This document shows positions 5,835 through 22,514 of a DNA stretch of 64,000 nt, in pieces. How positions within the stretch are numbered: position 1 is the first letter of the stretch; the number at the start of each line of letters is the position of its first letter. Position numbers and translations under genes: made by a program. The DNA is from Heptranchias perlo (lineage: Eukaryota), in contig NC_090356.1 of NCBI RefSeq assembly GCF_035084215.1, forward strand, positions 13,206,001-13,270,000, written 5' to 3'. The notes beneath the pieces were generated by a model. It was given only the letters and a program-made list of their open reading frames with translations, ran no database searches and was not told where the DNA came from.

Positions 5835-7753
5835 GGGCCCGATATTACCATGGCGGCGGGTTCGCGGCGGGGGGTCGATTGGGTGTGTGGGTAACGCGCC
5901 CGGTGAAATCAGTCTGCCCCGTGCACAATCGCAGGCTGATTGGATCCACTTACCTGTTGTTCCGGGTTCCCCGCTGCTAAGCTGCGCGGCGGGCGGACTG
6001 CGCATGCGCAGTAAGGTCTGTCAGCTGGAGGAGCTCTATTTAAAGGGGCAGTCCTCCACTGACTGATGCTGCAAGAAATAGGAAAAATTACAGCATGGAG
6101 CAGCCCAGGGGAAGGCTGCTCCCAGGTTTAATGATGCCTCATTCCAGCTCTTATTGGATGGGGTGAGGAGGAGGGGGAGGACAGAGATCTTCTCCCTGGC
6201 GGGCGGGAGGAAGCGGCCTGCCTCTGCCACCAAGAAGGCCTGGCTTGAGGTGGCAGAGGAGGTCACCTGCACCACCAACATATCGCCCACCTGCATACAG
6301 TGCAGGAGGCACTGCAATGACCTAAGTAGGTCAGCCAAAGTGAGTACACTTACTCATTCCCCTACACTCTGTCTGTCACATCACCCCTCACACCCACTCA
6401 AACCTCATCCTCATCTTACCTGCACTTACTCACCTCGCCACTACTCATCCCGCCACTACCACTCAACCCAATCCTCATACAATCTCATGGCTCTATCTCA
6501 TACTCACCCTCTCATACATCTCTTTCACAATCAGCCTCACTCAACCTGCCACTACCTGTGCTGCAGCCACAGGGCATGCATCACATATGTGCAGTAGGAA
6601 GCATAAGGCAAACGTGTCGTGAGCATGAAGGGGATGCACAAGGGTGTTTGAGAGTTTGTCATGGTTTTTACTTATATTTAATTTCTGATCAACTCACATT
6701 ACATATTATATTGTCACCACTACTGCCATGTCTTTGCGAATCTTGTCTGGTTTGTGCAATAATGCCCATTTCCTGAGGATCACTATGAAGACCCACAACT
6801 GATGCCACCCGTTGTGTCACTGCAGAGTGGGTATAGGTGTATTTGCAGGGCTCTTTTGTGCAGACGACTGAGAGACGACGGCGATGTCCCCGGTTGCACC
6901 CTGGAAGGATGCGGAGGAGAAGTTGTTGAGGGCAGCGGTGACTTTGACAGTGACAGGTAAGAAGATGGTGCTCGGGCCAACCGGGAGCAGCTCGGCATGA
7001 AGGAGGCTGCAGATGTCCACGACTACATGTTGAGTGACTCTGAGCCTTCGTGTGCTCTGCTGCTCAGAGAGGTCCAGGAAGCTGAGCCTCGGTCTGTGGA
7101 CTCTGTGACGCATCTCTCTCTGCGGTTGCCCTCCCTCCTGCTGTGCAGGTGGATGTGTCACAGCACTCTGTTGTGGAGCTCCACATGTCAGAGGTGGATG
7201 GCGTGGCCGGCGAGGCTGGTGACGCTGTTCGCCCTCCGAGGAGGTCTTGACTGCAGCTACGGCGGCCCCATCCGGAAGATGCACATCTGAGGGGGTCCGC
7301 AAGGTAGGTACATGTGTCTGGACACTGGGGTAAATGTGCAAGATGGTGAGTTTTATTGTTAGGAGGAGGGTGGTGGAGGCCAAACTTTGTCCAAGGTGAC
7401 AGAGTGGCCTCCTGCAATGAGTGAGGGTCTCCTCCACCCCCCCCCCAACCTGTCAAATGGACCTTTGCCACACGTCCATTTGAACTGGGAGTGTTTCCCC
7501 CAGTACGGGAAACAGTCCCAGTTGTTTGCAAAATCCCAACCCTCCTAAAATATCATGTTAATCAGGTCTCTAAACGACCTGAAATACCTAAATAAATACC
7601 TTAAGTGGCACCACATGCGGGGGCTGCGCGCGCATGTCAGCGCGTCAGTGGGGAGCCCGGAAAATGGGGCGGGTTGGAGCCGCCCCGGTAATCCCCGATT
7701 TTCGTAGCCCCCCGACAGGAACGCACCCGATCGCGGGTGCTAAAATCGAGCCC
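5835..7753 (+). mobile_element. Non-autonomous PIF/Harbinger element carrying a Myb/SANT-like DNA-binding exon
   Basis: TIRs GGGCCCGATATTA / TAAAATCGAGCCC; 3-bp target duplication AAA. ORF from ATG 6095 reads MEQPRGKAAPRFNDASFQLLLDGVRRR...ATKKAWLEVAEEV...CIQCRRHCNDLSRSAK and ends at an AAA|GTGAGT donor. Confidence 0.82.
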
Positions 7754-12481: not shown

Positions 12482-13289
12482 TCACCAGTCCAAACCTACA
12501 CTCTGGCTGGGAGCTAGTGACTTGTGAACAGCTGAATGCCATGTCATTTCTTCTTGATGCAAGCTTTTTCCCTAAATTTCCCCCTATATTGATACACAAG
12601 TTGTTTACATCTCAGGAAGAGTACTTTTCCTGACTCAAGCAATTTAGACTTCTGCTTATTCAGAGGAGCGCTTTCACATTTGTGTGTTATTTCCCAATTC
12701 CATGGTCATTTATAAGATCAAACATTACCTCATGCATGATCAGCATGTGGTCAGAACTTTTTGTACCTTTCCATCCTATACATTATTTTCAACTCAATTT
12801 TTTTTACTGTGACGCATTGTTACACTTTTCATTTTTTATTGCATTCCTACACAAAATGTGCACCCAATTCCAATAATTTCAACAAATGATCAATACACAA
12901 CATGACGATGAAAACATAATCATGTATGTAACTGGCCACTGTCCAGGAAGCAACCATAATGCCTTCATTGTGCGGTAGTCCACAGTATTCACATTGTTTG
13001 AAAGAGAAGAAATGTTGGAAGGATGACTCTCCGGGTTATCCGCTACAAAATTGACTGCTGACCCCACTGAGAAACCACCTAACCAGCAGCAGAGCACCTT
13101 GGCCTGGACACCTCAGCGTCTGTTTGAATTTTCTCAGCTGCCACCTTCACTTTAGAGAAAAGTATGCTTTGCAGCTTAGGCACAATGAAAGAGTCTGCAA
13201 AAAAGTGACGGTGATACACAGTGCTTGAAATAGTACCTCCGAGATGGTGCATTAGTTTCTATCGTGCTTTATGGGACACACATAAGTGA

Positions 13290-13530
13290 GGAGAAATCTA
13301 ATGTTCGTCTTGCTCCTGATACCAAAACAATTCTTCCTCATTTGCAGCCAGGTATGAGAGCTAGGTGACTGCATTGACTTAATTGCTATCTCCCTCCATT
13401 CAGCTGGTACCTTTATTGGAGGGTGGCCTTCAGCTTCACATAGGACCACCCACTTTTGGTGCACATCCTGCAGCAAGACCTCCAATTCTTCAGCATCAAA
13501 GAGAGGAGTGTTGCTCATATCTCTCCACAA
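13290..13530 (-). pseudogene. Decayed Harbinger Myb/SANT-like domain fragment
   Basis: PLFDAEELEVLLQDVHQKWVVL...AEWREIA...HTWLQMRK, the same F..E.LL..V / W..IA / TW.Q.RK pattern as the ORF at 6095. Confidence 0.6.
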
Positions 13531-13855
13531 CCTGTTTGCTGCATTGTGATGTAGATGATTACAAAATCGAGGCTTATTTGTTACCTTGATCTCAGAGAAC
13601 AGGTAATGTACCGGTGAGAGTTAAGCATTGTACGGCTATCTTATCTGCTGATTTAAATTGCTTTTGTGTATACTTTCTCATAAGATGAAACTTTTTTCAA
13701 AAATTTGTGCCTCTCAATCAGACTGAAATATTTGTTCTTTTTTCAATCTGTATCCAGTACCAGGGAGGTGGAGTGCAATACAAAAACTTTTCTAATTACA
13801 TTTTTGTTTTAGAGTTTGAGCTAACGCCTGGATTTCGAACACACGTGCATGAAAG

Positions 13856-13870
13856 ATGGGACACTCTGAA
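13856..13870 (+). CDS. TNFRSF-like coding exon 1 (MGHSE); the exon probably starts at 13813
   Basis: Acceptor tttttgttttAG at 13811-13812, then ATG GGA CAC TCT GAA and a GTGAGT donor. Phase 0 matches the next exon. Confidence 0.6.
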
Positions 13871-16800
13871 GTGAGTTATTTGATGCAGTGAACTTTGACA
13901 ATTTCTTTAATTATTTTCCTGACTGTATTGCAGCAGAATTATTCTTTGAACCAGTCTAAGTTATCATTAAAAACAAATATTTTATTAAATATAAAGCTTT
14001 TGGTCAAAAATATTTAATAGCATCAAAATTAAAACACTTAACAGTTTTTCTGAGAAGCTGAAGGGTCCACTTGGTCCTGCTGGCATAGCTCCGTGATGTT
14101 TCTTCCCCATTCCCTTCAAGATACTCAACTGATTTCAAAAGAGAGTCTATGCACACAAAGGGTTAACATCTTGTTAAAAGGAAATATCTGTTTTGTATTT
14201 TTCAATACCAGACTTCCTTCTTCAAATGCACATGACATGTGAATGACTCATTCTTCACCAAAAAAGAGGATGTGGTGATCTTGCACCAAATTACAGCACA
14301 TTTACATTACAGTACAGCTAACACCATAAACCTGAATTCAGCAGCAGTACTAGCCTAACGACTCTGAAGGAATGGAGGCTCTCTACATTTTTTTGGCCGT
14401 GGGCAGGTTGAACACTCAGCTCATGCATAAAAGCCCGTAAAAAGATTTTCTGCTTGCTGGCCTATATGAACTTTTCTCATGCAATGGGGGAAGTTTGCAA
14501 CCAGAAATTAAAGTTACAGTTGCTGCTTTCTGACAACTGCTCATCTGCAAGCTTGCATATGCAATGGCAAGCGTTAATAGCAACATGGATGTAGTAGATA
14601 TTTCCCTTTAGGTCTTTTGAACTCCAACATGTTAAACCTTTGCCTATTGGTAGCACTCTAGAATGAGTTAGAAGATTGTGGGTTCAAGCCTCACTCCAGA
14701 GACTTCAGCACATAATCTAGGCTGGCATTTCAGTACAGTACTGAGGGAATGTCTTTCGGATGTGACGTTAAACTGAGGCCTGATGTGCCCTCTCAGGTGG
14801 ACGTAAAAGATCCCATGGCACTATTCAAGGAAGAGCAGGAGAATTCTCCCCATCGTTCTTATCCATAATTATCCCCCAATCAACATCACTAAAACAGATT
14901 ATCTGGTCATTATCTCATTGCTGTTTGTGGGACCTTACTGTGTGCAAATTGGCTGCCACGTTTTCTGCATTACATCAGTGACTACACTTCAAATGCACTT
15001 CATTGGCTGTAAAGTGCTTTGGGACGTTCTGAGGTCATGAAAGGTGTTATATAAATGCAAGTCTTTCTTTTAAGGAGCAAGCTTCAGGCTACAGAATATA
15101 GGTTGTGACCAATTGTTATTTTATTGATGGAAATATAGTGGAGATCAACAAAATCTTTTGAATGGAAATGAATGAATCTGGGGAAATGTCAAAGCAAACT
15201 CTACTAGGTCAGCCCACAAAGATGGTTCCCCCCCATAGCTGCCACATGAAAATTTGCCATCATACATCAGCACCTTGTATACAATAAGATCCTTCTCCGG
15301 TTATATGAAGCATGGCTTCCTTCTCCTATTCTTCAACCAGCCCATTTTTAAAATTGTGTTATGTTAAGTTATTGTGCAGTAACAAAGGGATCAAAGACTT
15401 TAGGGGTAATTTTAACTCCCAAGAACGGGTGGGTTGGAGGCAGATGGGCAGTAAAAAGTTTGATTTTAAAGCGGAACTGCATCCCGGCTCCACGTGCCCA
15501 CTTCCGGGTTTAACCCAGGCATGTTAGCATGTGCACGCGCAGCAGAAACCCGGAAGTCCCCTCCCTACTAAAGCTGACGGGCCGATATTTAAAGGGGCAA
15601 TGTACCTCATAGCGATAGTTGAGGCATTTAATTTTTTGTGTATTAGAAATGTCAACCAAATTTAACCTACCTGTTTGGGTTTCCCATCGCTTCTGATTCA
15701 CGTCGGGGAAAGCAGGCGAGACGGGCCGGATCCATGAGGTGAGTGCCTTTATTGCACTGCTTGTGGGCCAGGATGAGTAGGAGGGCTTCATCCACGCCCA
15801 ACAAGCTCACCTGGTGTGATCGGACCTCAGCGATCAGCCGACAACCCCCCCACCCCACCCCTGATCTCTTCCACAGCCCACGATCTCTTCCCCCCTCCCT
15901 CCCCCCTCTCCAATATTCGCAGCTCCTTCCCTTCCGACAGCCTGTCAATATGGCTGCGCGGCGTGTGGGACACCCGTAGCACAAATACCCACTTTCATTC
16001 GAGTTGCGATCACAGATTGAGATGCACTCACTTGACTTCTGAGTTCCTCACGCTAAGATCTACACACGTGCTAGGTTCCCGGCTCCAAGCTAAAATCATG
16101 CCCCTCACGTCTGAATTGTTAAGTTAATGAACACAATTATTGGAGCCTTTTTCTGAATTATCATCTTAATTTACCATTGGACATAAATATCACATGGAAT
16201 TGTAAACAATACTGTACTTATTGCTAAGCAGTAAATATTTACTATTGGCGCCTGTTTATTACCAAAAGCGTGCTACTATGTCCCATATCGGATTCGCCTC
16301 TTATGTTTATGGGAATGCCACTGTTCGCTTCCCCACCTCCACGTAGGACAGTGAAGAGAGTATTTATTAAGTGAGTCTTATTTCCATTTAGATTTGTTGC
16401 ATCCTCTTATTGATCTTTAACTTGCAACTGGTGACCAGTTGTGGCTCAGAAGAATATAATTTTCAGGAATTGTGCTGTCCCATGTGCCATTCAGGTGAGT
16501 GACAACAACCTTTTTGAATGAATGTTGCCACACAAACTTCTGTAAGTTTTCAGCTGTTTTAAGAAGTGGTAATATTATGGTTTTGCTAATATAAGAATTA
16601 ATATAAGAATTACATCATATATTATGTTTTTTTCCCTTTTAAAAACTTTCATATGTGATATTTAAGATGTGTAATTTGGAAAGTTTAAGCAAAACTTAAA
16701 GAAGTAGTATATCAGCACTGTGCAAGCACCTTCTTGTGCCAAGACTTGTCCCAACATCTTCAATAAAAGTCATCTTCAGATTTTGGGTAGATTCTGAGGA

Positions 16801-19800
16801 ATGCTACACAGTGGTCTTGATCAGTTTTACAGCTGGAGATACCAGTACAATATATATTGTATATACGCCTGGATATAAAGAAAAAGGGAAAAGACTTGCA
16901 TAACTTTGGTTTCCTGGCTAATTTCACACAAATATTGTCTCAGTTTCCATCAACAACTAGAACCACTCATAATGGAAAAGATTTCAAACCCAGTGCTGCA
17001 CACAGACCTGGTCATGAAGTTCAAATTCTAACCTATTATTATCAATATGAAACATAACATCTGTAATCTGCTACAAATTTTAATTAAAACCTTGGTGATA
17101 CTGCAGAAGTGTCATCATATCCTGGGAATATGTAATGCATCTGATAAGGACAGAAATTCTAATCTCTAATGTTAGAATATTAACCATACATTATATAATA
17201 GAGATTAGGACAGACAATGGAGTGAGATGAAAACAGTAATCTAATCTCAGAGTTCAGATGTCATTTAAAAACTAATTTTGTTGCAGCATTCTGGTTGACA
17301 CAGCTACCTTGTTTTTCCTGAGTATCTGTTCTTCTTATGAAGATGATTACATTTTCTGTTGTAAGCTGTATTTGCATGGTTTTCTTTGATTTTCTACAGT
17401 GAAACTAGAAGAATCTAACATGGCAATTCTGTGACTCCAGCTTTACCTTTTGCAAGTAATGCTCTAGCTTTTTAATTTTTCTTTTTATTGCAGGTACTCG
17501 TGTTTTGAAACACTGTACATCAGCATCATCTACCACATGTGTTCCCTGTGCTCGTGGAACTTTCACAGACCACCCAAATGGTTTCGAAAAATGCTTGAAG
17601 TGTAAATATTGTGATCCTGGTAAACATTTAGTAACAATTCTTTTAACATGTTTTCATAATCTAAACTTTTCCCATGAAGGTTTATCCAATTGCCTTTAGG
17701 AATACACAGAACTGAGCAAAATGGACTAATTTCTAAATTTCTTTAAAGAATTAGTTGTATTCCTCTGCTACTTTGTACGTTTTAGAAAATTTGAACAATC
17801 AAATAAGTTGATTTTTGACCAAGGTATTTTATAAACGGTATTGTGGTTCGAAGGGTCTGTGTCAGAAACTTAGCTGAGTGTCTGACACAAACAGAAACCC
17901 ATGGCTACTGTTGAATTTAGTCACTTCCCACAATATGGCTACAGTAGCATGAAATTGAAATATCTGGTTATTCGTATTCAGTTGCGTAAATGTGATATAG
18001 AACCAGTAATTAGTCTTAAGATTTGGTGGAATAATTAACAGCTGTGAAGGGGAAGAGCGTATTTGTTTAAGGTTATGTAAAATTAAGTTTCCAACGCTAA
18101 CCCAGTAACAAAAAGAAACCTGGTTTTTATCATACCGCTTGTTTTGCTAAGTTGTATTGAGTATGAAATTCTATGAAATAAAAGAGTAGCTTTTATTGTT
18201 TCATGTTTTGCTTGCATCCTACAACCCTTAAGACCAAGGTTGATGTGGGTGACAACAAATTTAATTTATTTGAACCTTAATGATTTTTTTAAAATTGTAG
18301 AGCTGGGACTTGAAACTCTGAAAGAATGCAATGACACTCAGAATGCATCGTGTGACTGCAAAGATGGGTATTTCTGCTTAGCGAGAACAAAAGATGGATG
18401 TCACATGTGCACAAAATTTATCCCACATATTTTCAACGAAAATACAAAAGCCAAAGGTATGACATTAGATTGATAATTGTTTCGTGGTGGATCATGCAAT
18501 ATTGCAGGTCAGACATACATTGATTGAATATGTATATGTGGCCACAAACTATGGAGTTAGTAACAATTGGTTATGGTGCGTTTTCGGATCCATAACCGAA
18601 AGCAGGCACGGAACACACGCTCCAACTGGGAAGCCTGAGGCTGGCCCGAAAATGGGCCTTAGGCCTCATTTCAATAAATTAAGTGAGCTGCCAGAACCTG
18701 TCATGCCTCCATAGGCAGGTTGCCTAGTTCAGGCTTGCTAGCACTGTCGACGACACCTTCCACCACTTTGCTGATGATTGAGAGTAAACTGATGGGGTGG
18801 TAATTGGCTGGATTGGATTTGTCCTGCTTTTTGTGGACAGGACATACCTGGGCAATTTGCCACATTGTCAGGTAGATGCCAGTGTTGTAGCTGTACTGGA
18901 ACAGCTTAGCTAGAGGCATGGCTAGTTTTGGAGCACAAGCCTTCAGCATTACAGCCAGGATGTTGTCGGGGCCCATAGCCTTTGCTGTATCCAGTGCACT
19001 CTTGATATCACATGGAGTGAATCGCATTGGTTGAAGACTGGCTTCTGTGATGGTGGGAATCTTGGGAGGAGGCCGAGATGGATCATCTACTCTGCACTTC
19101 TGGCTGAAGATGGTTGCAAACGCTTCAGCTTTGTCTTATGCACTCACATGCTGGGCTCTGCCATCATTGAGGATGGGGATGTTCATGGAGCCTCCTCTTC
19201 CCATTAGTTGCTTAATTGTCCACCACCATTCATGACTGGATGTGACAAGACTGCAGAGCTTTGATCTGATCCGTTGGTTGTGGGATCACTTAGCTCTGTC
19301 TATAGCATGCTGCTTCTGCTGTTCAGCACCCATGTAATCCTGTGTTGTAGCTTCACCGGGTTGGCATCTCATTTTTAGGTATGCCTGGTGCTGCTTCTGG
19401 CATGCTCTTCTACACTCCTCATTGAACCAGGGTTGATCCCCTGGCTTGTTGGTAATGGTAGAGTGAGGGATATGCCAGGCCATGAGGTTACAGATTATGG
19501 TGGAATACAATTCTGCTGCTGCTGATGGCCCACAGCGCCTCATGGATGCCCAGTTTTGAGCTGCTAGATCTGTTCTGAATCTATCCCATTTAGCATGGAG
19601 GTAGTGCCACACAACACAATGAACGGTGTCCTCAAATTGAAGACGGGACTTCGTCTCCACAAGGACCGTGTGGTGGTCACTCCTACCAATACTATCATGA
19701 ACATGTGCATTTGCGACAGGTAGATTGGTGAGGACGAGGTCAAATAGGTTTTTCCCTAATGTTGGTTCTCTCACCACCTACCGCAGGCCCAGTTTGGCAG

Positions 19801-21350
19801 CTATGACCTTCAGGACTCAGCCAGCTCGGTCAGTAGTGGTGCTACCAAGCCACTCTTGGTGATGGACATTGAAGTCCCCCACCCAGAGTACATTCTGTGC
19901 CCTTGCTACCCTCAGTGCTTCCTCCAAGTGGTGCTCAACATGGAGGAGTACTGATTCATCAGCTGAGGGAGGGCGGTAGATGGTAATCAGCAGGACGTTT
20001 CCTTGTTCATGTTTGACCTGGTGCCATGAGACTTCATGGGGTCCGGAGTCAATGTTGAGGACTCCCACTCCCTGGATAGTTACATAATTTGTATTATGTA
20101 ACAATCCTCCACTCATTGCATTTTGCTGGAGAAATAATCCTGTTGTACTGGGTTTTTATAGAATCATAGAAGTTTACAACATGGAAACAGGCCCTTCGGC
20201 CCAACATGTCCATGTCGCCCAGTTTATACCACTAAGCTAGTCCCAATTGCCTGCACTTGGCCCATATCCCTCTATACCCATCTTACCCATGTAACTGTCC
20301 AAATGCTTTATAGAAGAGACTCTGGTGTAGTAATAGACTGGTGAGTAAATAGACTCTGTTTGCTGTAGTTTATGAGTAAATGAAAATCACAAGTCCTGCC
20401 CCTCCACCTCGTTAGCTGATAAAGTGGTGTCAATATTCACATTGTAAGAAAAAATTAATAATGTTGTCTTCACAATGCTCTGATAATTCCAGAACTTTCA
20501 TTAATGTTTGTACGATTAATGTTGGTAATAATAGCACCATTATTTTAGCCCATATTACTCTGGTCACAGTTATTTTTTTATAATTCATATAGGTAATCAT
20601 AGGCAACATGAAGTGAGACCAACATCAGAGTCTGGAATAACTCACGGCGACACCATCATTAAGTTTATGGGTCAGGATGAAGCACAGAATCCATCACCAC
20701 TTGGGAACAAAACCCAAAGGAGAAAAACTATTTCTAAACCAGAAATATCAGACACATTCTCAAAGGGGGAGTCAGCTTCAGAAACAATTCCAGGGAAACT
20801 CAAGTTTGGGCACAGACAGGACCCTGTAACAATAACAAAAACACTAACGGCACTGATGCAAGAAATTGATCAGGCATTTCCAAAAGAATCTTTAAAGCTG
20901 CAGGAGGCAGGGAACACAGCCACTACAAAATTACAAAATACTGTGCAGACCAACTTGACAAACATTCAAAGTGTTTTGCAAACTGGGCTAGCAGATATTC
21001 GAATTACTATTCAGACTGGCATGGCAGGTCTGCAAAGTGCTATGAAAACTGGCATGACAGACATTAAGAATGCACTGCAGATTGGAATGACAGGCATTCA
21101 AGAAGCTATAAAGTCTGGAATTGCTGATATCAAAGGTATCACTCAGGTTGACAATACTCTGAAACAACAACAGGCAAATTCACAGTCTAACATGATACAA
21201 ATGACCAAGCAGATTGGTTCACTGGTCACCCTATTGACAAAACTTGCCTCGAACCAGACAGTCTCCTTCATTCAACTTAAAGATATTACTTGTAAGCCTT
21301 CTATTAAAACAGAGGTGGTGCAACTGCAAGGAACGGAAAAGCAACCTTAA
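13856..21350 (+). CDS. TNFRSF14 (HVEM)-like TNF receptor superfamily gene, 5 coding exons: join(13856..13870,16392..16494,17494..17619,18301..18456,20593..21350), 385 aa, apparently lacking a transmembrane domain
   Basis: All introns are GT-AG with compatible phases (0,1,1,1). Total 1158 nt = 385 aa + stop. Protein: MGHSE|ICCILLLIFNLQLVTS (signal peptide) CGSEEYNFQELCCPMCHS|GTRVLKHCTSASSTTCVPCARGTFTDHPNGFEKCLKCKYCDP|ELGLETLKECNDTQNASCDCKDGYFCLARTKDGCHMC..., which has TNFR cysteine-rich-domain spacing. Exact orthology is not resolved. Confidence 0.8.
14645..15070 (+). mobile_element. DeuSINE-like (SacSINE1/AmnSINE1-related) SINE
   Basis: tRNA-like head (tggtagcact...gggttcaag), central gatgtgacgttaaactgagg...aaagatcccatggcacta, tail ...aaggtgttatataaatgcaagtctttc. 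Related copies at about 31140-31430 (+), 50170-50370 (-) and 61640-61690 (+). The family name comes from recall. Confidence 0.75.
15403..16104 (+). mobile_element. MITE-like element in TNFRSF-like intron 1
   Basis: GGGGTAATTTTA ... TAAAATCATGCCCC imperfect TIRs; colinear with 4499-5313. Confidence 0.75.
16392..16494 (+). CDS. TNFRSF-like exon 2: signal peptide and start of CRD1
   Basis: tttccatttAG acceptor; encodes ICCILLLIFNLQLVTSCGSEEYNFQELCCPMCHS; G|GTGAGT donor. CCxxC is typical of TNFR CRD1. Confidence 0.85.
17494..17619 (+). CDS. TNFRSF-like exon 3: CRD1/CRD2
   Basis: Long polypyrimidine tract + cAG; 126 nt encoding GTRVLKHCT...TTCVPCARGTFTDHPNGFEKCLKCKYCDP; GTAAAC donor. Confidence 0.9.
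18301..18456 (+). CDS. TNFRSF-like exon 4: CRD2/CRD3
   Basis: ttgtAG acceptor; 156 nt encoding ELGLETLKECNDTQNASCDCKDGYFC...GCHMCTKFIPHIFNENTKAK; G|GTATGA donor. Confidence 0.9.
18735..20070 (-). mobile_element. LINE ORF2 internal fragment (APE endonuclease to RT N-terminus) in the last intron of the TNFRSF-like gene
   Basis: YRPPSADESVLLHVEHHLEEALRVARAQNVLWVGDFNVHH; PVHKKQDKSNPANYHPISLLSIISKVVE. Same family as 57340-60245; contains stops and frameshifts. Confidence 0.92.
20593..21350 (+). CDS. TNFRSF-like terminal exon: polar linker plus 11-residue-repeat amphipathic helical domain
   Basis: Acceptor ...tttttttataattcatatAG at 20591-20592 puts the phase-1 junction (G+GT) in frame with the 245-aa ORF 20613..21350. 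Several AATAAA follow (21484, 21642, 21684, 21781). Confidence 0.72.
20943..21140 (+). repeat. Coding tandem repeat, 6 x 33 nt (11 aa)
   Basis: VQTNLTNIQSV / LQTGLADIRIT / IQTGMAGLQSA / MKTGMTDIKNA / LQIGMTGIQEA / IKSGIADIKGI. The DNA units align at a 33-nt period (e.g. attcagactggcatggcagg, atgaaaactggcatgacaga, ctgcagattggaatgacagg). Confidence 0.9.
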
Positions 21351-21483
21351 GTTACACTGAGGCCCATGAGACAGACCTTGGGTAGGTTTCCAGCTCTGGT
21401 TCCTCAGCTCCACACAAAGGAGCATCCATTAAGGATACATAGCCTGGAAGGTGAAGCACACACCCAACAAATATCAAAAAGTT

Positions 21484-21489
21484 AATAAA
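21484..21489 (+). terminator. First candidate polyadenylation signal of the TNFRSF-like gene
   Basis: AATAAA about 130 nt after the stop codon, followed by U-rich sequence; more hexamers at 21642, 21684, 21781. Confidence 0.5.
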
Positions 21490-22514
21490 TACATTTATTT
21501 TTCTGGACGGCACTTTCCCCTTTTAGTTTCTTCCTATAACTTAACATAATTCATCTTGGCTTTTGCATTTTTCTCAATTCTTTTCAATAATGCTGGGCTC
21601 CAAGACTTTCTTTTGACAGAGTTTACTTTGACAGATGTTGTAATAAATGAAATGCTGTTTAAATTGAATATTGCATGAATGTCAATAAACCTATCACACA
21701 ACATTTCACGGAATTCTGTAAGGAGTGCATGTCTTCAAAGAGTTGCTTAGATGGCTTGGCCTAAGAATGTGCATTGTTATAATAAACCGTGTTTGGCATT
21801 ATGTAACAAAAAACTTGCCTACAGTCTACTATGTGGTGCATTGTGCGAGGAAAGTACCTGACAGCGTGTGCTCATATTAATAAACTGCTTTATTCCATCA
21901 GATGTTTGGTGCACTCCATTCCAAGTTGGGGAAAGAGTCATATTGAATGCAAAAGCTAAATGTTCAGCATAAACCTACCTGACAGCTGCTATTACATATG
22001 GGACACTTTTTATTGTAATTGTGGGTTTTCATGCAAGCACTTTCTGTTCTCTACACATGGAGATAATCAGCAAAAGACGCCAGGAAAAAGCTTACATTTG
22101 TTGAGTTGTGATACTTTTCCCCTCCATTTTTCTACCCTAAAGGCACTGGGGGTATTGTTTGCTCCTGGCATGAGATCAAAGTGTTTCATGAACACAGAAT
22201 TGCTCCTCTGCCACTCCTTCCCCTCTGCATTCCCTAGTGGGGAATAGTGCCAACTGGGGAAAGGGATTGGGTGGGTGGGGGGGGGGGCACGATTCTGGAG
22301 AAAGGGAGTATGGCTGAAGGAGGTGAATCGGAGAGATCAGAACCAGAAAGTGGCTGAAGAAAGGGGAAGGGCAAAGATTTGTTGCTGCAGCCAATATACG
22401 CACTCAAATAAACACAGAGGGAGACCTTAGATCACACAGACTAGTGCAAAAGAGCTCGACGTGGCAAGGAAGGTCCTTACAGTAGGGACCTGGTAAGATG
22501 AGGCAACTTTTCAA

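Follow-up and report, generated by a model that had tools for sequence, protein, structure and literature searches.

DcR3 (TNFRSF6B) and OPG (TNFRSF11B) have four cysteine-rich domains (CRDs) each, and OPG, which carries a lone C-terminal cysteine, dimerises. We know of no coiled-coil-like tail of 11-residue repeats in either protein. Poxvirus CrmB and CrmD and engineered TNFR multimers fuse a secreted TNFR head to an unrelated C-terminal module, which in the viral proteins is the SECRET domain, a beta-sheet chemokine-binding domain. DcR3 and OPG have been described as the two secreted TNF receptors of mammals (PMC6001812; PMC5477258). Here, we analyzed a 64,000-nucleotide stretch of the Heptranchias perlo genome (contig NC_090356.1, positions 13,206,001 to 13,270,000 of the forward strand; hereafter the window, numbered from its first letter) that holds a gene for an HVEM/TNFRSF14-like protein lacking a transmembrane (TM) segment and carrying a tail of six 11-residue repeats within a longer helical module. 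The feature is real, conserved, and expressed, and its architecture and the reuse of the module in three elasmobranch families are apparently undescribed. From its domain layout, the shark protein would work most like DcR3 and OPG but derive from HVEM.

The six in-frame repeats of 33 nucleotides span 20943..21140 (+), encode residues 251-316, and sit inside a stop-to-stop frame at 20535-21350 (+). An earlier note on this DNA had described six coding repeats in which positions 1, 5, and 8 are hydrophobic and position 4 is mostly glycine, and both the frame and the position counts bear this out: the three hydrophobic positions are kept in 6/6 units and the glycine in 5/6. There are no indels between units, and their pairwise DNA identity ranges from 14 to 22 of 33 nucleotides. 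At a lag of 33 nucleotides, DNA identity was 0.594 compared to 0.289 ± 0.035 in codon shuffles, none of 20,000 of which scored as high. The hydrophobic moment has its maximum at 98.5 degrees per residue (98.2 for a 3/11 helix) and reaches 0.354 at the 3/11 pitch compared to 0.081 at the heptad pitch, a value matched by 8 of 10,000 residue shuffles. The units differ least at codon position 2, at half the level of the other two positions (0.50, 0.25, and 0.51 for positions 1, 2, and 3). The note's reading of the repeat as coding sequence constrained at the level of the protein is supported. We conclude that the six-unit periodic repeat is real, coding, and beyond chance. The array was absent from the output of Tandem Repeats Finder. 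A decayed form of the 11-mer pattern continues for one unit upstream and about two units downstream, and there is a weak 22-residue super-period in which units alternate and charges at positions 7 and 9 fall nearly all in even units.

The same pattern holds in orthologous proteins. In hendecad notation (positions a to k), the 60 units of ten orthologues have glycine at d in 46 and L, I, M, or V at a, e, and h in 54, 58, and 60, respectively. Position k is mostly Ala, Thr, Val, or Ile, K and R occur at b and i only, and acidic residues occupy g and j. The repeat is free of proline in 9 of the 10 proteins, has a moment of 0.33-0.42, contains no aromatics, and has 12-15% charged residues.

A scan for cysteine motifs identified TNFR-like exons upstream of the repeat frame, and the frame itself matches an NCBI Heptranchias perlo protein of 385 residues (P0001) at 100%. 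A GT-AG model joining 13856-13870, 16392-16494, 17494-17619, 18301-18456, and 20593-21350 gives the exact translation of P0001. The earlier note had missed this host gene, which encodes a TNF receptor of HVEM type without a TM segment. All of its exons lie on the forward strand. Non-coding exon 1 (13497..13602, donor placed from the sequence) is seen in X1 and X2 as RNA contig pieces at 13497/13504-13600 that continue into exons further downstream, and was reached by contigs of two of the four runs. Exon 2 (13813..13870), with the ATG at 13856, and the final 2 nucleotides of exon 1 together account for a 60-nucleotide gap in the X1 contig. RNA contigs also support exon 3 (16392..16494), which encodes a signal-peptide-like segment with a hydropathy peak of 1.96 and the start of CRD1; exon 4 (17494..17619), which encodes CRD1/CRD2 of the HVEM-like ectodomain and is backed by the HVEM match and the gene model; and exon 5 (18301..18456), which encodes the end of CRD2 and the first half of CRD3 and is backed by domain matches and the gene model. 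Terminal exon 6 (20593..21899) contains the linker, helical module, tail, and 3′ untranslated region, with coding sequence to 21350 and AATAAA at 21879. In 4/4 runs, contigs pass from exon 4 through exon 5 into the terminal exon with 0 differences, and gene models of 14 species agree with the spliced structure. Three introns of the gene are in phase 1. A hydrophobic stretch lying upstream in frame, near 20490-20590, might have been a frameshifted TM exon, but the contigs splice at 20593, which rules this out.

The predicted product consists of a signal-peptide-like start, CRD1, CRD2, half of CRD3, a variable linker of ~90 residues, the helical module, and a short tail. Its head scores 37.2 bits against Pfam TNFR_c6 (cut-off 29.4), and 60 TNFR-family chains are among the listed matches to solved structures. 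Residues 20-130 are closest to HVEM/TNFRSF14, without gaps, at E 4.5e-23, followed by horse ELR1 (2.1e-22), CD40 (1.3e-15, seven orders below HVEM), OPG (1.3e-8), and DcR3 (3.7e-8). At E 1e-8 to 4e-8, DcR3 and OPG rank below HVEM, CD40, DR6, LTBR, and Fas, and their place far below HVEM speaks against orthology to TNFRSF6B or TNFRSF11B; automatic labels reading "11B-like" (one) and "16-like" (one) conflict with HVEM as the best match. Downstream of the gene lies the first coding exon of a cyclin L2-like gene (27072..27272, +; E 1.7e-24), and cyclin L2 and TNFRSF14 both lie in human 1p36.3. HVEM is a type I membrane protein with a TM helix and a signaling tail. The shark protein has neither the TM helix nor the cytoplasmic TRAF-binding tail; only the first half of CRD3 is present, CRD4 is missing, and the 11-mer module is added. 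In published HVEM work, H86, L90, L94, and D100 are assigned to the LIGHT side and G72 and V74 to the BTLA/CD160 side (10.1101/2021.06.16.448617). The position of L90 is leucine in 13 of 14 shark and skate proteins, that of L94 is hydrophobic in all 14, and that of D100 is aspartate in 11, whereas G72 is kept in one and V74 in none. The aligned residues therefore suggest that the LIGHT-side surface is largely kept and that the BTLA/CD160-side surface is not.

Signal-peptide and TM calls were made from hydropathy alone. Past residue 45, no 19-residue window exceeds 1.29 in any of 26 family proteins, and all eight full-length proteins have an N-terminal peak of 1.5-2.2. Three N-glycosylation sequons encoded by the tail exon are kept in 14/14, 13/13, and 12/13 proteins, Heptranchias perlo lacking the third. 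Two of the three sites vary in the middle residue or exchange S and T, and retention despite such changes fits the expectation for a luminal protein. Because the protein lacks a TM segment and has an N-terminal hydrophobic peak and conserved sequons, we infer that it is secreted. The sequon at residue 172, kept in all 14 proteins, and the linker basic cluster that follows it, kept in 13 of 14, lie at 20706..20729 (+); the cluster is often all-lysine, and a constant R-x-x-R is absent. In the short tail, Cys367 (21291..21293, +) is the lone cysteine and is kept in 13/13 proteins reaching this position, making it a candidate for an inter-chain disulfide. No convincing TM exon was found at 44 acceptors between exon 5 and the cyclin L2-like gene, although a few pyrimidine-rich frames near 25300-26500 were hydrophobic in the same scan. 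Similarly, six-frame translation of the window revealed no further CRD exon and no other TNFR exons. Isoform models vary around exon 5: the basking shark skips it, and others use a longer exon-5 donor that adds 4 residues. None of the isoform models P0013, P0003, P0010, and P0170 contains a TM segment.

Orthologues are present in 14 named sharks and skates, with 56-68% identity over the tail, and the layout of signal and cysteine-rich exons followed by a TM-less terminal exon is kept in both groups. Compared to P0001, identity averages 0.72 over the CRDs and 0.50 over the linker; within the tail, the six units average 0.67 and the stretches on either side of them 0.73 each. On these figures, the repeat is not the most conserved stretch of the tail. 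Heptranchias perlo lacks four residues directly after unit 6 that are present in 8/8 other aligned proteins reaching there, and the white-shark model ends where the repeat ends. Houndshark and catshark orthologues (P0007, P0170-P0177) have an extra 4-residue low-complexity expansion, rich in K, E, A, G, and Q, past Cys367. Protein searches returned no chimaera or bony-fish member, a weak negative in that one search also missed P0030 and P0062, known members that fall in its length range, and the tail-profile search described below hides any sequence clustered at 50% under P0008. The matches found outside elasmobranchs were generic 11-mer look-alikes only. Databases already contain the gene: NCBI lists it in the form of automatic gene models, in records labeled uncharacterized or hypothetical or given conflicting automatic names. 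In open-licence full text, outside which most subscription journals lie, we found no mention of six locus or protein identifiers and no description of a TM-less HVEM head joined to an 11-mer module or of the module in three families.

The terminal exon carries more than the repeat. Alignment to a second protein family defines a shared elasmobranch helical module of about residues 229-358 (20877..21266, +). A profile of the tail of the HVEM-like receptors (family A) was run against 1.84 billion representatives and gave 145 matches at E ≤ 0.001, with family A itself at 292 bits and the next match at 83 bits and below. Most are generic 11-mer proteins, including phage tape-measure proteins, CCDC90-like proteins, and axolotl paralemmin-3. 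Six of ten matches that were looked up align in one long stretch, and all six are from elasmobranchs. Family B (P0025, P0028/P0165, P0029, P0164, P0168, P0169; all uncharacterized), from sharks and an electric ray, has one immunoglobulin domain and 4-5 hydrophobic segments (four hydropathy peaks above 1.8 in three of four proteins and five in the other), a CD47-like layout, followed by a Thr-rich region and the module. Family C consists of two hypothetical shark proteins (P0030, P0062) that start just before the module, show no visible signal peptide, have an 8-residue insertion within the module, and end in acidic tails; these records may be partial gene models. The ray isoform P0166 of family B ends without the module, which suggests an alternative terminal exon. 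Another family B model, P0181, runs on past its gene into further sequence, presumably LINE reverse transcriptase, and this extension is probably a read-through artefact. At the junction 21140-21141, where Heptranchias perlo lacks its four residues, family A as a whole is one residue shorter than families B and C, giving two register changes at a single point.

Several comparisons indicate that the three families share more than periodicity. An hhalign comparison of family A with family B aligned 134 columns with a probability of 97.9% and E 4.5e-13. The part of the tail after the repeat scores 61-74 against seven family B and C proteins (the eighth lacks that part), compared to 33 ± 5.5 (maximum 54.75) against 138 other matches. 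Moreover, a profile from family B alone places families C and A above all generic matches. When the tail profile was divided into thirds, the flanks scored families B and C weakly (E 0.015-0.57). Module identity runs at 0.73-0.80 inside a family and drops to 0.29-0.37 across families. From these alignments, the module is judged homologous across the three families, and since families A and B each include both sharks and batoids, its duplication would predate their split. The earlier note had proposed an oligomerising or lipid-binding module acquired by duplication or exon capture, and a single terminal exon with a counterpart in two other shark families is in keeping with this.

By contrast, the resemblance to CCDC90-like (DUF1640) stalks and phage tape-measure hendecads is one of analogy. 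Units of the look-alikes P0049 and P0093 are nearly identical in pattern to units 2-4, but the match is limited to the repeat, and the non-repeat part scores 33 ± 5.5 rather than 61-74. Paralemmin-3 proteins (P0020 and P0167 from axolotl; P0031) have a very long 11-mer repeat that scores 95.4 and 90.8 bits against Pfam Apolipoprotein, above the cut-off, and represent an independent vertebrate 11-mer expansion. The tail of the shark protein scores 20.6 bits against the same model (cut-off 90) and matches apoA-I at E of at least 0.47; no Pfam match to Perilipin or synuclein was found at E ≤ 10 and no synuclein match among PDB sequences at E ≤ 1. Homology to perilipins, apolipoproteins, and synucleins, to which the earlier note had likened the repeat, thus found no support. 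A transposon origin, also raised there, fared no better: a Pfam scan of 143/144 non-family matches (P0065, 7465 residues, left out) named no transposon domain, and the window holds no second copy of the module. The high-copy repeat with frameshifted copies envisaged in the note was sought in the window only, and the intact shark and skate orthologues argue against it. The viral contigs gave 93 pattern matches, of which one passed: a repeat-driven phage open reading frame (L001 1350-2492, 380 residues) with a lipoprotein-like start, Gly-containing 11-mer repeats, and a 7-residue word in common with unit 5, a likeness taken as convergence. In the ESM Atlas, all leads for the tail were under 0.9 and P0030 had no usable match.

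AlphaFold2, given the three-family alignment, predicts the module as one unbroken, proline-free helix of 120 residues (pLDDT 85.6, pTM 0.41), consistent with the continuous 3/11 amphipathic helix proposed earlier. The full-protein model had a pLDDT of 33 and was set aside. A Foldseek search of the PDB with the single-helix model returned 0 matches, one straight helix being uninformative in such a search, and predictions of three tail copies without an alignment scored 0.01 and 0.02, which speaks neither for nor against a trimer. A helix of this length, if correctly modeled, would need a partner surface, either its own copies or lipid. CCDC90-type stalks are parallel trimers, and the closest look-alike units of the repeat belong to coiled-coil stalks, which favors the former. 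Hendecad bundles are reported to need a small residue at the core position that points to the axis (PMC9858780). The repeat has both the 11/3 hydrophobic periodicity and a small residue at that position.

On this basis, we give an even chance to a secreted HVEM-derived decoy whose hendecad tail, with the repeat at its core, oligomerises as a coiled coil. Under this model, the terminal exon would have been gained by duplicating a module that also serves the immunoglobulin/multi-TM protein of family B and the third protein of family C, and an elasmobranch-specific HVEM derivative would be secreted. Its ~120-residue helices would self-assemble into a parallel hendecad coiled coil, most likely a trimer and possibly a tetramer, with the a, e, and h aliphatics and the glycine at d forming the core and Cys367 perhaps locking the chains. 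The oligomer would present several ligand-binding heads on flexible 90-residue linkers. Both the HVEM:LIGHT complex and TNF ligands are described as 3:3 (10.1101/2021.06.16.448617). Given this stoichiometry, heads that each bind weakly would gain avidity for trimeric ligands of the LIGHT or lymphotoxin type once a parallel oligomeric tail held them together, and the ligands would be neutralised or buffered as by DcR3 and OPG through other means. TNFSF14 and expanded TNFSF sets are reported in shark genomes (PMC11762692), so ligands exist in sharks. In nurse-shark plasma, one uncharacterized protein is reported to have a TNFRSF3-like best match (PMC9207270) and might belong to this family; the main text of a Greenland-shark plasma paper (PMC13701976) names no TNF receptor.

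Several observations weigh against the decoy model or parts of it. RNA support comes from one sample of one study, and the RNA status of the runs was guessed; they were treated as transcript evidence because spliced joins are what mRNA gives, and the contigs may leave room for a TM-bearing splice form. On the ligand side, the position of H86 is H in 6, R in 6, and Q in 2 of the 14 proteins, and with half of CRD3 and all of CRD4 missing, ligand binding may be weakened or changed. Within the repeat, paired g/i salt bridges occur at unit 6 in 10/10 orthologues, at unit 4 in 3/10, and at unit 2 in 1/10, and a regular pattern along the units was rejected because only unit 6 shows it consistently. 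Finally, the moment, aromatics, and charge of the repeat lie within the values tabulated for helices of perilipins 3 and 4 (PMC5889406), and its K and R residues lie on one flank, as described for perilipin 4 (PMC8064757). These last features point to the main rival, which we hold possible but doubtful: that the module is a lipid-surface 3/11 amphipathic helix by which the receptor attaches to lipoproteins of the plasma, to vesicles, or to cell surfaces, so that many heads are displayed on one particle in the manner of perilipin 4 or an exchangeable apolipoprotein. The moment maximum at the 3/11 pitch, the hydrophobic fraction, the Gly/Thr/Ala-rich composition with few charges, the weak super-period, and the sub-threshold Apolipoprotein match would all suit such a helix, as would the position of the family B module after a multi-TM region, near the membrane. 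However, the array has 6-8 units only, and perilipin 4 is reported to need more than 66 residues for droplet targeting (PMC5889406). The narrow stripe of large aliphatics with invariant glycine is typical of a bundle core, and is larger than the stripe of perilipins, apolipoproteins, and synucleins. The repeat also lacks the proline-punctuated 22-mers and the two basic flanks of apolipoproteins A-I, A-IV, and E and has no significant match to them. Perilipins are cytosolic, with a PAT domain and a C-terminal four-helix bundle, none of which is seen here; the shark protein instead combines a predicted signal peptide and TNFR head with a single long predicted helix. With a TM-less HVEM-like host gene the repeat would be extracellular, which rules out lipid droplets and synaptic vesicles as its site.

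Conservation of the module in three families that keep its register and length at about 29-37% identity could instead reflect an interaction or polymerisation domain, one that assembles with family B or C modules or forms mucus or matrix fibres; the heads would then be scaffolds or agonist cross-linkers of membrane ligands, acting by reverse signaling, and not neutralising decoys. An N-x-S at the end of the module in 5/6 family B rows and the Thr-rich region before it are compatible with this, and the family B module could be extracellular if there are four TM segments. We consider this improbable, as the charge around the hydrophobic segments of family B, read from the sequence, favors five TM segments and a cytosolic module, and family C shows no signal peptide. 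The basic cluster, conserved within a linker that is otherwise variable (0.50 identity compared to 0.67-0.73 in the module), raises the prospect that the tail is cleaved there to yield a separate peptide or chaperoning pro-region and a small monomeric soluble receptor, and a basking-shark isoform model does begin past most of the cysteine-rich region. Yet a cluster that is often all-lysine and has no constant R-x-x-R could equally bind heparan sulfate, and the neighboring sequon would probably shield it, so that cleavage seems quite improbable. Least credible is an exon without a selected function, either the relic of a transposon or virus or a gene-model artefact. The introns here are dense with repeats, and the module is lineage-restricted and mobile in the way of captured element genes, but the open frame, register, and sequons are kept in sharks and skates, the transcript is spliced, the module is single-copy in the window, and the searches described above yielded no transposon domain and one weak phage match. 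As a relic, this reading is already largely refuted, and as a whole we regard it as highly improbable.

Other features of the window concern its repeats and flanking transcripts. In the intron before the terminal exon, 18700-20155 (-) and 20159-20300 have very high contig depth; we take the former to be LINE-like endonuclease and reverse-transcriptase fragments and the latter a SINE-like repeat. Further upstream, 1900-2900 and 6090-7600 presumably hold decayed Harbinger-like transposase and Myb-like fragments, and a tblastn search with module-bearing proteins gave no match to either. Low-depth unspliced contigs at 12961-13410, upstream of exon 1, and at 26169-26918, upstream of the cyclin L2-like gene, are possibly promoter-associated transcripts or DNA.

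Compared to the described secreted receptors, the shark protein shares with DcR3 and OPG a predicted signal peptide, CRDs without a TM segment, and a basic cluster, but has 2.5 CRDs and no death-domain-like region. Like CrmB and CrmD, it would be a secreted TNFR head with a foreign C-terminal module, but it is host-encoded and spliced, and its tail is a helical 11-mer array. Pfam has no entry for this new module, whose natural Gly-core hendecad could serve as a scaffold, possibly for multimerising receptor traps. In a broader scenario that we think rather unlikely, a mobile 11-mer module present in at least three architectures was grafted onto an HVEM head to give a third independent secreted TNF decoy, lipoprotein-riding or multivalent; if true, it would be a natural receptor-apolipoprotein-like fusion tying shark lipid transport to the neutralisation of cytokines or viral glycoproteins. 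A secreted receptor that derives from HVEM and multimerises through its own tail would mean that the buffering of TNF ligands was solved independently in the oldest lineage to have adaptive immunity, and would bear on control of the LIGHT axis in cartilaginous fish.

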